Of a stretch of 64,000 nt of DNA, positions 54,893 to 58,182 are shown in pieces. This DNA comes from Escherichia coli (lineage in GTDB: Bacteria > Pseudomonadota > Gammaproteobacteria > Enterobacterales > Enterobacteriaceae): NCBI RefSeq assembly GCF_003018115.1, contig NZ_CP027457.1; one strand, given 5' to 3'. Below the pieces are notes generated by a model. It worked only from the letters and a program-made list of their open reading frames with translations, searched no databases and was not told the origin of the DNA. Position 1 is the first letter of the stretch, and every line of letters begins with the position of its first letter. Position numbers and translations under genes: made by a program.

Positions 54893-54980
54893 GGTGAGGT
54901 GTCCGAGTGGCTGAAGGAGCACGCCTGGAAAGTGTGTATACGGCAACGTATCGGGGGTTCGAATCCCCCCCTCACCGCCA
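54893..54980 (+). tRNA. serX: tRNA-Ser (anticodon GGA), serX-type
   Basis: 88-nt GGTGAGGTGTCCGAGTGGCTGAAGGAGCACGCCTGGAAAGTGTGTATACGGCAACGTATCGGGGGTTCGAATCCCCCCCTCACCGCCA; long variable arm, encoded CCA; adjacent to ghrA. Confidence 0.97.
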
Positions 54981-55129: not shown

Positions 55130-55971
55130 CTATACTGCCAGCATGTCAGGATAGTGTTTTGCGATAATATCATTCAGTCTGTCAACCAGTTCTGGTTTTC
55201 TGAACGTGATATGCGCGGAGCCCTTCTTAAAGTATCTGATGCTGAACATCTCATCTTCATAGTCCTCTTTTCCCTGAACAGATTGGATATGGTCATCCAG
55301 ATGAATGGTGATGTTTTCCCGGTTGTCGGGGATCGGTTTGCCGCTGAACAGGTGCAGCATTCTTTCCAGATCGGCAAGTCGATCGGCCTGTTGCCCGGTG
55401 ATAAGATGCCCCCCCACCGGTCCCACCTCACCAGATTGTTGACGATAATTTTACTGCCAAATTTGCAGGGTGAATTGGTTTTGTAATTCCAGCTCAGTCC
55501 CCTGAAAACGTTGATCACCCCTCGCTCAAACACTTCATCTTTGTTCTGGTGCAGTTGTTCAAACGTGCTCAGGATATTCGCTTCGCTGATTTCCGGAAAA
55601 TTATCGTACTCCAGTGACCGGTACCATGTATCACGGGCTTGTGCATCCATTAATGACAGCATCCCTGAACGTTGCATCAGGTCACGCCAGATTTCGCGGT
55701 CAAGGTTGTGGGTGATGGCTTTCATTGCGGTTTCCGGTTTCTCCATGAGCCAGCAGCCACAGCGAAAATCCTGTTTCATGGCCCAGTCCAGTGCGGTTTT
55801 ACCTCCGATGCTTTCCGCCAGCACCGAGATTTCTGCCAGTTGCCGGATAAGCGTGTCGATTTGCAGCAGTGTACTTTTTCGTACAGCCAGAATGTGGCGG
55901 ATACTGGTTGAGCAGATAACGTCCGTATGCCCGTTGACAACTTCCAGACGAGAGGCTGTGATATCAGACAT
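55130..55971 (-). pseudogene. uncharacterized island protein split by a -1 frameshift at a G7 tract (265-aa ORF 55174-55971 plus 98-aa ORF 55130-55426)
   Basis: Two overlapping same-strand ORFs switch frame at GGGGGGG (plus-strand C7, 55409-55415); an 8-G tract would give one ~330-aa protein; family not recognised. Confidence 0.6.
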
Positions 55972-55982
55972 AATCGATTATA

Positions 55983-57403
55983 TGAACGCATCCCGTTTGC
56001 AAAGGCATCCATTGTTCTGACATCGACGGTAGGTTGCAGCTTTATATCCGGCTTTATTGCAGCCCGGAAGCTGCGAGCCCCTATGTAATTCGCCGACTCA
56101 CGCCTCATTTCCTCAGCGGGCTTTAGGCCCAATCGATTATCCAGGTTTAGTGAGTCACGGTCTTACCTGTCTTTGTCATCACGCTGGCTGCCAGAGCAAC
56201 CTTTCTGCATTCACCCTTTTGTAAAGAGTTTATGTTTATCGGTATCAGCGATTAATCAGGCCTGATACTGACATGATTTTTGTCGTATTTACGTCCGTGA
56301 GCGGCTATTGCCCACACCGTTCGCGCCAGCTTGTTTGCCATTGCGACGATTGCCACGCTGGCCGGACGACGCTTTTTCAGTTCGGTTATCCATGGACCAG
56401 GTTCTTTGGTCAGTAATGCTGCCGCCCTTGCACCATGAATAAACAGGGTTCGCAGATATTTATCACCACGTTTGCTTATTCCCAGCAGGCGGATTTTTCC
56501 TCCTGAGCCTGTCTGTCTGGGCACCAGACCGATAAACGCGGCGAATTCCCGTCCCGACTTAAAGGCGGAGGCGTCTCCCATCGTGGCAACGGCAGCGGTG
56601 GCGATTAACGGCCCCACGCCTGGGATGTTCAGTAACCGCTGACAGGTTTCATTCTGTCTGGCTACCGCCTGCAACTGCTTCTCAATGTGGTCAAGATGTT
56701 CATCAAGTTCAGTAATTCGCTGATATTGTTCATCCAGCATGTTTATCAGGTAGAGCGGTAGCCGCTCCTTCAGACGCTCCAGGGCTTCCGGCACCTCCTT
56801 CGCCAAAGCAGCACGCCCCTTGTGCGTCGTTTCACCAAATTCCAGCAAGAGACCGTGAAGCGCGTTTATTTGTGCTGTCCTGAACTTCACCAGTTGCTGG
56901 CGCATTCGGTGTAACCCCAGCGTAGCCTGTTGCTCCTCGCTTTTAACGGCGACGGATTTTACCGGCTGCTGAACCGCCAGCCAGATGGCTCGGGCGTCCA
57001 TCACATCGTTTTTATTTCCCATCACGAATGCTTTGACGAACCGGCCTTTGAGTAATCTGACCTTATGTCCCAGTTTCTGAAGCTCACGCGCCCAGTGATG
57101 AGAACCCCCACAGGCCTCCATGCCGATAAGGCAGGGTTCACGGTTGCTGAAATATTCAAGGAATTTCTCACGCTTAACCTGCTTATCGATAATCTCTCCG
57201 GTATGTTCATCAACGAAATGCACCTGCATAAGATGTTTTGCAATATCAACCCCGACAGGGATATATTTCATGGTGTGGATCCTCCAGTCTGTTGGGAGCG
57301 AAACGCATCCCGTTGGGCACGATGATGCCGGAAATCTGCGGGGATCCACACTCATCTACTTAATCCCCGAGCGGCTCATTTCATAATGTTGGGATGCGTT
57401 CAT
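55983..57403 (-). mobile_element. IS110/IS1111-family insertion sequence (~1.42 kb)
   Basis: DEDD-type IS110-family transposase ORF bounded by a perfect 13-bp inverted repeat ATGAACGCATCCC (55983-55995) / GGGATGCGTTCAT (57391-57403); exact termini uncertain. Confidence 0.75.
56252..57271 (-). CDS. IS110-family transposase/recombinase
   Basis: ORF 56252-57355; start at MKYIPVGVDIAKHLMQVHFVDEHTGEI... typical IS110-family N-terminus, C-terminal LGISKRGDKYLRTLFIHGARAA region. Confidence 0.88.
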   Translation of the reverse strand: MKYIPVGVDIAKHLMQVHFVDEHTGEIIDKQVKREKFLEYFSNREPCLIGMEACGGSHHWARELQKLGHKVRLLKGRFVKAFVMGNKNDVMDARAIWLAVQQPVKSVAVKSEEQQATLGLHRMRQQLVKFRTAQINALHGLLLEFGETTHKGRAALAKEVPEALERLKERLPLYLINMLDEQYQRITELDEHLDHIEKQLQAVARQNETCQRLLNIPGVGPLIATAAVATMGDASAFKSGREFAAFIGLVPRQTGSGGKIRLLGISKRGDKYLRTLFIHGARAAALLTKEPGPWITELKKRRPASVAIVAMANKLARTVWAIAAHGRKYDKNHVSIRPD

Positions 57404-57484
57404 TACATTTCCTTTTTGCAGATAAATGAAAACGCCAGCCCTGTTCAGGCTGACGTCAGTGGAATAAAGTCTGGTGAGTGAGAT

Positions 57485-57682
57485 TCACCGGTTCTGGTGC
57501 AGAAGCTGCAGTTGGCGCAGGGTACGGATATCCTCCCCGGCCTGTTCAATACAGGGCAACAGTGCTGCCGAATCCGTTTTATCTTCATCGTTGTCAAAGA
57601 TAATCCCCGATTCGCAGTCGATATTGTCCTGCAGCCACGCAATCAGAATATCCAGTGCTGTTTCCGTGGTTAATGATTTCAT
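57485..57682 (-). CDS. small conserved island protein (DUF957/YeeW-like)
   Basis: ORF 57485-57727; start placed at MKSLTTETALDILIAWLQDNIDCESGIIFDNDEDKTDSAALLP... to avoid overlap with upstream ORF; family name from memory. Confidence 0.6.
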   Translation of the reverse strand: MKSLTTETALDILIAWLQDNIDCESGIIFDNDEDKTDSAALLPCIEQAGEDIRTLRQLQLLHQNR

Positions 57683-57693
57683 GTTGTTCCTGG

Positions 57694-58182
57694 TTACCAG
57701 TCGAAAGTGGGTAAATCCGGCAGACATTCGGCGCTGGCATCCAGATGAATGAGACTGACGCCATAACGTCGGGTAAGTGTGACAACCAGACGGCGGAACG
57801 TTTTTGACAGCCCCAGGCGTTTAAGCCGCAGAACCGGGTATGACCACGCACCGGTACGTAACAGATATCCGCTACCTGTGAAATGAATCCATTCTGATTC
57901 GCCAGTGTCATTCGTCTGATGTGACAGCGAATACAACCAGGCGTTGTCCTTTGCCGTGATATGCGCGGTACTGCAGCGTATGCCGGTCAGGGCAGCAAAT
58001 GGTGGCGTGCGCTCTGCTGATGTCCGGTCAGATTCATCAACAACACGAAGGGAGTAGCCATTGTCGCAGGCCACGTTAATCAGTTCAGCGAGATTAACAC
58101 CATCGACGTCAACGACAATTCGTCCCATGTTCAGCGCCTGCACGTTAACGCTGTCTGCTTCCAGCGTCAGGGCCAGTTTCAT
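57694..58182 (-). CDS. conserved island protein downstream of CbtA (DUF5983-like)
   Basis: 162-aa ORF MKLALTLEADSVNVQALNMGRIVVDVDGVNLAELINVACDNGYSLRVVD...; start overlaps cbtA stop (ATGA). Confidence 0.65.
   Translation of the reverse strand: MKLALTLEADSVNVQALNMGRIVVDVDGVNLAELINVACDNGYSLRVVDESDRTSAERTPPFAALTGIRCSTAHITAKDNAWLYSLSHQTNDTGESEWIHFTGSGYLLRTGAWSYPVLRLKRLGLSKTFRRLVVTLTRRYGVSLIHLDASAECLPDLPTFDW

Follow-up and report, generated by a model that had tools for sequence, protein, structure and literature searches.

A conserved three-helix leader fold buries the ribosome-binding site of an IS1111-group transposase in Escherichia coli and probably limits its translation

In Escherichia coli contig NZ_CP027457.1 (assembly GCF_003018115.1), a stretch of 64,000 nucleotides, hereafter the window, carries an insertion sequence (IS) that is an ISEc11-like member of the IS1111 group of the IS110 family. 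The 5' untranslated leader of its transposase mRNA is predicted to fold into three helices, in which an outer helix, P1, would enclose two hairpins, P2 and P3. The Shine-Dalgarno sequence lies inside this fold, and the fold is conserved among related elements, where changes on one side of the helices are matched by changes on the other. By burying the ribosome-binding site, the three-helix fold probably acts as a constitutive brake on translation of the transposase. Leaders that inhibit translation of a transposase are a known kind, and the fold described here is a new example of it. The gene and the parts of the fold are the following:

56252-57271, minus strand: gene of the IS110-family RNA-guided transposase, 339 aa (open reading frame, with which the RefSeq annotation agrees).
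57336-57351, minus strand: P1 5' strand (anti-Shine-Dalgarno), made of GUGUGGAUCC at 57351-57342, C57340 and CAG at 57338-57336.
57273-57287, minus strand: P1 3' strand, CUGG-A-GGAUCCACAC, which holds the Shine-Dalgarno sequence GGAGGA (57285-57280).
57316-57329, minus strand: P2 hairpin, GGCAU-CAUC-GUGCC, found by RNAfold, with a nearly invariant stem.
57294-57311, minus strand: P3 hairpin, GGGAUGCG-UUU-CGCUCCC, supported by folding and compensatory changes.

The original prediction had described a perfect 10-bp hairpin in this leader, and the inverted repeat is indeed present: GTGTGGATCC (57273-57282) faces GGATCCACAC (57342-57351) across 59 nt. Its position directly upstream of the recombinase ATG, on the same strand, was also correct; a single nucleotide separates the 3' arm (57282-57273) from the ATG (57271-57269), and in mRNA sense the fold reads 5'-GUGUGGAUCC...GGAUCCACAC-C-AUG. 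The second, imperfect stem reported within it, GGGAGCG...CGCATCCC, is real and corresponds to P3 (57311-57294, minus strand; 7 bp with one bulge). RNAfold added two elements that were absent from that first description, the helix P2 (57329-57316) and an extension of the outer stem by 5 pairs, 57336-57340 with 57284-57287. Folding of the minus-strand leader, the check that had been proposed, gave a 111-nt RNA with a free energy of -38.3 kcal/mol (z = -3.57), and none of 200 shuffled sequences folded as well. The bare repeat, in contrast, is not significant: the window contains 26 pairs of complementary 10-mers separated by a loop of at most 80 nt, and first-order Markov simulations of the window gave an expectation of 4.7 +/- 2.8 inverted repeats of 10 bp per 64 kb. 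Since repeats of this length are common by chance, the repeat alone proves nothing, and it is conservation with compensatory changes that lifts the hairpin above chance. A search of Rfam 15 returned no match with E <= 1 over 55800-57700, and none at the gathering score over the IS when the whole window was searched. A terminator or attenuator was also considered for the hairpin and rejected, because no U run comes after the stem; what follows is CAUGAAAUAUAUCCC, without a U tract, and a terminator scan reported nothing at the hairpin.

Conservation was analysed in leaders taken from 22 genome loci, E. coli and plasmid relatives and viral contigs. They comprised 27 distinct sequences, including those of ISEc11, ISEc66, Xenorhabdus, Photorhabdus, Vibrio and metagenome-assembled genomes (MAGs), whose transposases share 56-100% protein identity. 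The hairpin is neither absent from nor unconserved in other copies of the IS, as the three helices recur in the 27 distinct leaders, and single-sequence folds gave the same architecture in most of those collected. Covariation was measured as cell-based pair counts, with the helices written by hand onto a plain MAFFT alignment of 23 distinct leaders (A3), made independently of structure. In A3, standard pairs make up 90.5% of the cells, whereas sliding the 3' partners by 1-3 columns lowers this to 35-47%; nine pairs show compensatory, both-side changes, and none of 500 column shuffles reached the observed values. Over the 27 distinct leaders about 90% of the cells pair, against 35-52% in the slid controls. 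The compensatory changes that the original prediction had proposed to look for were found at 15 of 26 pairs in a model-fitted alignment with 27 distinct rows, which included the Vibrio and viral-contig relatives. This alignment leans towards the structure, and the independent MAFFT alignment agrees with it. The pairs in question belong to P1 (10 of 15) and P3 (5 of 6). For P2 the support is conservation only, with 98% of the cells paired and no covariation, while the fourth base of its loop varies freely (A, U, C or G).

The alternative versions of the outer helix illustrate how pairing is kept. The GUGUGGAUCC/GGAUCCACAC of the window is replaced in the ISEc11 group by GUGUGGAGCC/GA-CUCCACA, and in ISEc11 and ISEc66, compared with the window element, one G-C pair is U-A and C-G stands in place of a C.A mismatch. 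The P1 of Citrobacter is GUGUGGCUCC/GGAGCCACA. The Vibrio elements (56% protein identity) form P1 from another perfect 10-bp stem, GGAUACUCCC/GGGAGUAUCC, with the Shine-Dalgarno sequence inside it, and in both the Vibrio and the MAG relatives P3 has a wholly different sequence at the same position. A covariance model built from A3 has a single match in the 64-kb window (57263-57363, 98 bits), and it matches upstream of the transposase gene in the searched relatives with an intact 5' region, down to Vibrio (56%). The sole exception among these relatives is L039 (70% identity), which gave no match with the model; its interior is one hairpin, and it keeps an AUCCUCG/CGAGGAU pairing with the Shine-Dalgarno sequence. 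Some copies that are otherwise 99-100% identical to the window element (L002 2730-2760; L036 509-609) carry a natural variant of the P1 5' arm, GUGUGGAACC, in which a U to A change creates an uncompensated A.A mismatch that should weaken the clamp slightly. Leader identity is 92% in paired and 82% in unpaired columns, compared with 80% for the coding sequence and 60% for third codon positions; in these alignments, the leader is more strongly constrained than the transposase gene.

The fold was not seen throughout the group. Single-sequence folds of distant IS1111 members (IS5075, IS5708, a Klebsiella element at 47%, Croceicoccus and Ralstonia) gave no such three-helix fold, and predicted other modes of pairing between their leaders and the Shine-Dalgarno region. 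For example, about 60 nt upstream of the transposase gene of IS5075 (L047), the predicted partner of the Shine-Dalgarno and start region GGAGAACCAUCAUG is the left subterminal repeat itself, GAUGGUCACUCC, a pairing that would be another route to the same occlusion. As these are single-sequence folds, we make no claim for the whole IS1111 group.

Among the functions that the original prediction had offered for the hairpin, sequestration of the start region is the one that the data support. The Shine-Dalgarno sequence GGAGGA (57285-57280), 8 nt from the AUG, and its spacer lie in the conserved and covarying 3' strand of P1, and every member of the fold has its Shine-Dalgarno sequence in that strand (GGAG or GGGAG elsewhere). 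Thus, as expected of leaders that occlude a ribosome-binding site, the helix includes the Shine-Dalgarno sequence and compensatory changes maintain the helix. In the partition function, the Shine-Dalgarno sequence and spacer have pairing probabilities above 0.9, and their unpaired probability is about 0.00-0.08 except at one bulged A. The predicted cost of opening the region from the Shine-Dalgarno sequence to AUG+3 is 12.2 kcal/mol with the 5' arm present and 4.9 kcal/mol for a transcript starting after that arm. By a metric common to 58 neighbouring genes, in which positions -18 to +6 are opened within a -120 to +30 context, the transposase start costs 18.5 kcal/mol and ranks third of the 58, for which the median is 7.6 kcal/mol; the pyrC leader, known to hide its Shine-Dalgarno sequence, costs 13.8 kcal/mol.

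In ISEc11 no promoter was found besides the circle-junction promoter (PMC11187229). In the window, the TTGCAA of the right end stands 14-20 nt from candidate -10 boxes identified by eye, spacings that locate the junction promoter only approximately. A promoter scan detected no sigma-70-like promoter between the arms on the sense (minus) strand, which speaks against an internal start of the IS10 type. The mechanism that we propose would operate as follows. In P1, the upstream anti-Shine-Dalgarno strand would pair with the Shine-Dalgarno sequence and the entire spacer to the start codon; 30S subunits would rarely gain access to the buried site, and transposase translation would be kept low. If the junction promoter is the only one, and it lies upstream of both arms, the fold should be present on all transposase mRNAs and would act as a constitutive cis-acting brake, rather than just as a filter against read-through transcripts. 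Both the lowered translation and the start of transcription are inferred here, from the structure and by analogy with other IS elements.

Inverted repeats in transposase leaders are known to pair with the Shine-Dalgarno sequence or start codon and to limit translation in IS10, where this is called fold-back inhibition, as well as in IS50 and IS200. The promoters of IS10 and IS50 themselves start transcription between the arms, which restricts the block to read-through transcripts. The window element differs from IS10 and IS50 in that no internal promoter is seen and the fold is expected on all mRNAs; it differs from these two and IS200 in having an unrelated transposase family, and three helices instead of a simple stem. 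A closer parallel is ISPpu9, an IS110-family element in which point mutations that weaken a 5' untranslated region (5'-UTR) burying the ribosome-binding site raised a translational fusion 26-fold (PMC8450116); the same paper (PMC8450116) names IS10, IS200 and IS50 when it discusses regulatory RNAs encoded by IS elements. ISPpu9 and the window element share the recombinase superfamily and a structured 5'-UTR that buries the ribosome-binding site. However, ISPpu9 belongs to the IS110 group, and its long 5'-UTR also holds the bridge RNA (PMC12288879), whereas the window leader is a separate 79-nt element and the guide lies 3' of the gene. Because the ISPpu9 5'-UTR contains a guide RNA, the resemblance is one of mechanism and not established homology.

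Several points weigh against the fold being a simple brake, or against its novelty. RNAalifold on the MAFFT alignment gave P2, P3 and small local hairpins in each arm, but not P1; for this reason P1 was taken by hand from the single-sequence folds and tested by pair counting with slid and shuffled controls. Two ordinary genes, dinI and grxB, exceed the transposase start on the opening metric, which makes this metric weak alone and supportive only. For the window element, inhibition of translation is suggested by structure and analogy. The junction strands CAGAUUUCC, CCAAUAC and UCAGACUGGAG, together with P2, are conserved beyond what plain occlusion of a Shine-Dalgarno sequence would need, which hints at an additional role in binding, processing or tertiary structure. 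Moreover, if the fold is on every mRNA, some relief mechanism may exist; pairing of the leader with the 3' non-coding region (NCR) that contains the seekRNA is a poor candidate for it, as RNAduplex energies were no better than those of shuffles in 10 of 11 elements. Finally, we know of no earlier treatment of this leader, although Prosseda et al. 2006, on ISEc11, may contain one. In the ISEc11 seekRNA paper (PMC11187229) and the other literature searched, the leader fold is not mentioned.

In a rival reading the leader is a regulated switch rather than a passive brake, its fold being opened by a trans-acting partner such as an antisense RNA, or bound by a protein at the conserved junction. We regard this as a minority possibility, rather unlikely as it stands, and one that does not exclude the brake, with which it is compatible and to which it would add a layer. 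The candidate source of an antisense RNA is:

57238-57267, plus strand: antisense promoter-like site TTGCAA-18-TATATT, a consensus match inside codons 2-12; speculative.

The site faces away from the gene, an RNA started there would be antisense to the whole leader, and the arrangement resembles that of ISPpu9, whose antisense promoter likewise overlaps the first codons. In that element the antisense RNA Asr9, which relieves the 5'-UTR block (Gomez-Garcia et al., NAR 2021, PMC8450116), was made from a fusion containing eight transposase codons but not from one with two, and it opens the 5'-UTR and stimulates translation (PMC8450116); antisense RNAs have been reported to be possibly widespread in ISPpu9 relatives (PMC12288879). 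The 82% conservation of the unpaired junction bases, compared with 60% at synonymous sites, also fits a regulated leader. On the other hand, the promoter scan found two sites in the region where 1.3 are expected by chance, and conserved codons (K2-Y3 and D-I-A-K) determine the hexamers, which decay where those codons differ (L039, MSYI; Vibrio, MNSN) while the fold persists. The ISEc11 authors saw the junction promoter only, and the transposase-bound reads came from the 3' NCR, not from the leader (PMC11187229). With about the same low probability, the leader might be a dedicated regulatory RNA module of ISEc11-like RNA-guided transposons and more than a passive clamp, with the junction and the P2 loop read by an antisense RNA, the transposase-seekRNA complex or a host factor. 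If that were true, the transposase would be translated only in a particular state, for instance after circle formation, and bridge/seek-RNA transposons would possess a second RNA layer that has not been described before.

The junction strands also bear on a role in mRNA processing or stability, either as 5' protection or as a single-stranded RNase E-type site (GA/UUU in CAGAUUUCC) that would control how the long junction transcript decays or matures. The stretch that joins P1 to P2, CAGAUUUCC, is single-stranded and conserved, and the junction transcript, which also carries the seekRNA, must be processed for seekRNA release (PMC11187229). Nevertheless, the Shine-Dalgarno helix has the most compensatory changes, the fold lies about 45-55 nt downstream of the left end instead of where the transcript is predicted to begin, and 1 kb of mRNA separates it from the seekRNA at the opposite end; we consider such a role improbable. 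Still less probable is that the conserved stretch is coding, either as an N-terminal extension of the transposase from an ATG at 57355 or as a leader peptide coupled through an ATGA overlap. The reading frame 56252-57355 is open, with an in-frame ATG (57353-57355) preceded 8 nt upstream by GGGGA, and would give 367 aa with a 28-codon extension; in many relatives a frame through the fold is open, and ends at a TGA that overlaps the ATG. However, the extension frame is stopped within 16 codons in 14 of the 27 leaders examined, including those of ISEc11 and ISEc66, variable columns number 15, 13 and 10 at codon positions 1, 2 and 3, without a third-position excess, and the leader frame shifts relative to the transposase gene among relatives; the RefSeq protein begins MKYIPVG. 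The coding hypotheses were rejected, since the extension is not conserved and there is no codon periodicity.

The remaining readings of the hairpin, as part of a 5' bridge RNA or as a recombination site, depend on the group to which the IS belongs and on the location of its guide RNA. The transposase, whose RefSeq protein start is MKYIPVG, matched PF01548 (DEDD_Tnp_IS110, 1.3e-13) and PF02371 (Transposase_20, 1.2e-22) in Pfam, and NCBIfam NF033542 with 341 bits (cutoff 140); it thus has the RuvC-like DEDD N-terminal domain and the Transposase_20 C-terminal domain that define the IS110 family. The ends of the IS were set by comparison with three other insertion contexts, in an IncI1 plasmid (L001), a second CP4-like island (L002) and the region upstream of ydhF (L003), and with two empty sites, in K-12 (L004) and E. 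coli 1303 (L005). The element extends over about 55980-57408, with an AA core on either flank:

57391-57403, minus strand: left subterminal inverted repeat, ATGAACGCATCCC in the orientation of the IS, 13/13 complementary to the right repeat.
About 57408: left end of the IS, followed by the AA core at 57409-57410, from the comparison of insertion contexts and empty sites.
55982-55994, minus strand: right subterminal inverted repeat, GGGATGCGTTCAT, 13/13 complementary to the left repeat.
About 55980: right end of the IS, with the AA core at 55978-55979, from the same comparison.
56026-56251, minus strand: 3' NCR with the seek/bridge RNA, from the alignment of relatives and PMC11187229.

The repeats are set in from the ends of the IS by 5 nt and 2-3 nt, in line with the 7-17 bp, a few bases in, that is typical of subterminal repeats, and the 5' leader of about 137 nt is shorter than the 3' NCR of about 270 nt. 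Subterminal inverted repeats and a longer 3' NCR are marks of the IS1111 group (PMC11187229; PMC11208160), and it is because of the 13-bp repeats and the longer 3' NCR that we place the element there. Insertion is site- and orientation-specific, with AAG/AAGG-AA..GATTATG shared by three unrelated sites, and leaves no long target duplication, the AA core alone being repeated (two empty sites were recovered). A copy with 99.5% identity is present in E. coli ATCC 25922. By BLAST match the nearest named relatives are ISEc66 (78% nucleotide identity) and ISEc11 (76%); over the transposase gene ISEc11 and ISEc66 are 73-75% identical to the window element (ISEc11, 73%). ISEc11 is the published IS1111 model system for seekRNA (PMC11187229), and with ISEc66 it shares with the window element the subterminal repeats, the 3' seekRNA scaffold and the leader fold. 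The targets differ, being GAGGAA/..CGATTAT for the window element and GTGAAAA/TACTG for ISEc11, and the guide segments differ too.

An alignment of the 3' NCRs of 15 relatives revealed a conserved scaffold with short variable segments that match each element's own flanks. Of the guides of the window element, AUAAUCGAUU (56140-56131) complements the right flank AATCGATTAT and GAGGAAAU (56114-56107) equals the left flank together with the IS end; the equivalents in ISEc11, CAGUAUUUUG and GUGAAAAU, match its published target GTGAAAATACTG. The donor-matching (IS-end) segments of the window 3' NCR, AAUUACAU and GGAUAUAAAG, co-vary with the ends, and in L032, whose right end is CATAC-AG, they are AAUCUCAU and GGAUACAGAG. 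The match of the variable segments to each relative's flanks and ends places the bridge/seek RNA of the window element, as judged from these alignments, 3' of the gene.

The suggestion that the hairpin belongs to an IS110-type 5' bridge RNA did not hold up against this arrangement, and we regard it as scarcely credible. It is true that the gene encodes an IS110-family RNA-guided transposase and that the IS110 group proper has its bridge RNA upstream of the gene (PMC11208160); the bridge RNA of the IS621 type (Durrant et al. 2024, PMC11208160) is likewise a structured RNA in a non-coding end, next to a recombinase of the same family. However, the 13-bp subterminal repeats and longer 3' NCR indicate the IS1111 group, for which the leader is the wrong end. 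In every relative the guide segments of the 3' NCR follow the flanks, whereas the leader fold hardly varies between elements that have different targets; it has neither the target and donor guide loops of the IS621 bridge RNA nor segments that co-vary with the target, and it has no match in Rfam. In ISEc11, deletion of the 3' NCR abolished circle formation with the leader intact, and the RNA reads recovered with the transposase come from the 3' NCR rather than from the leader (PMC11187229).

A DNA-level function of the hairpin, as a recombination site, a transposase binding site or a cruciform, is just as hard to credit. In its favor are the perfect palindromic pair, which contains a BamHI site, and the copy of 13 nt of the right subterminal repeat held by P3. 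Against it, ISEc11 mini-elements with only 50 bp of the left end transpose at 15-42% and tolerate cargo after bp 50 (PMC11187229), and the ISEc11 outer helix starts at about position 69, beyond that 50-bp end. Furthermore, sequence changes that preserve pairing fit an RNA helix and not a sequence-specific protein site, and in relatives the P3 copy shows no co-variation with their subterminal repeats. The ISEc11 experiments and the constancy of the leader led us to exclude both the 5' bridge RNA and the recombination site. As to the copy itself, the 13-nt AACGCATCCCGTT of the right repeat (55985-55997) recurs exactly in P3 (57302-57314), and a 10-nt complement of it is part of the left subterminal repeat (57391-57400), so that a transcript including the left repeat could pair with P3. 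No co-variation between the P3 copy and the true repeats was found in L034, L006, L012, L013 and Vibrio, which makes a function of the copy doubtful.

Other observations concern the surroundings of the IS. Its three unrelated sites (55969-55981 with 57409-57420 in the window, and those of L001 and L003) lie between a Shine-Dalgarno-like AAGAGG/AAAGG-AA and a ..GATT-ATG whose ATG is the annotated start of the downstream gene, namely a DUF4942 gene in the window, ydhF, and a HEAT-repeat gene of the IncI1 plasmid. By inserting between the Shine-Dalgarno-like motif and the ATG, the IS splits a ribosome-binding site from its start codon, and the seekRNA guides (56131-56140 and 56107-56114) match these ribosome-binding-site and start-codon flanks. 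At the right end and its flank (55978-56005), the junction creates an outward TTGCAA-N14-TATAAT (TTGCAAACGGGATGCGTTCATATAATCG) aimed at the DUF4942 gene; its hexamers are near consensus, but a normal sigma-70 promoter needs a spacer longer than these 14 nt. In strain 2014C-4135, to which the window is 100% identical, the annotation gives the DUF4942 gene as frameshifted. The IS resides in a CP4-like island with genes for RadC, the YeeU/CbtA toxin-antitoxin, DUF5983, DUF957 and DUF4942, adjoining tRNA-Ser(GGA) (54893-54980), and a terminator-like hairpin (57457-57431, minus strand) is found between the DUF957 gene and the left end of the IS.

The principle is not new, as IS10 and IS50 already established that transposase leaders can occlude ribosome-binding sites. 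Nonetheless, IS110 and IS1111 recombinases are under development as programmable genome-editing tools, and work so far has centred on the guide RNA. For expression of the native element, removal or mutation of the 5' arm should raise protein yield. The motif, which has no Rfam entry and is represented by 27 distinct sequences and a covariance model, is a candidate new family of cis-regulatory RNA. Furthermore, a conserved and covarying leader indicates that synthesis of the transposase is throttled post-transcriptionally, which bears on the frequency with which these elements move in nature.

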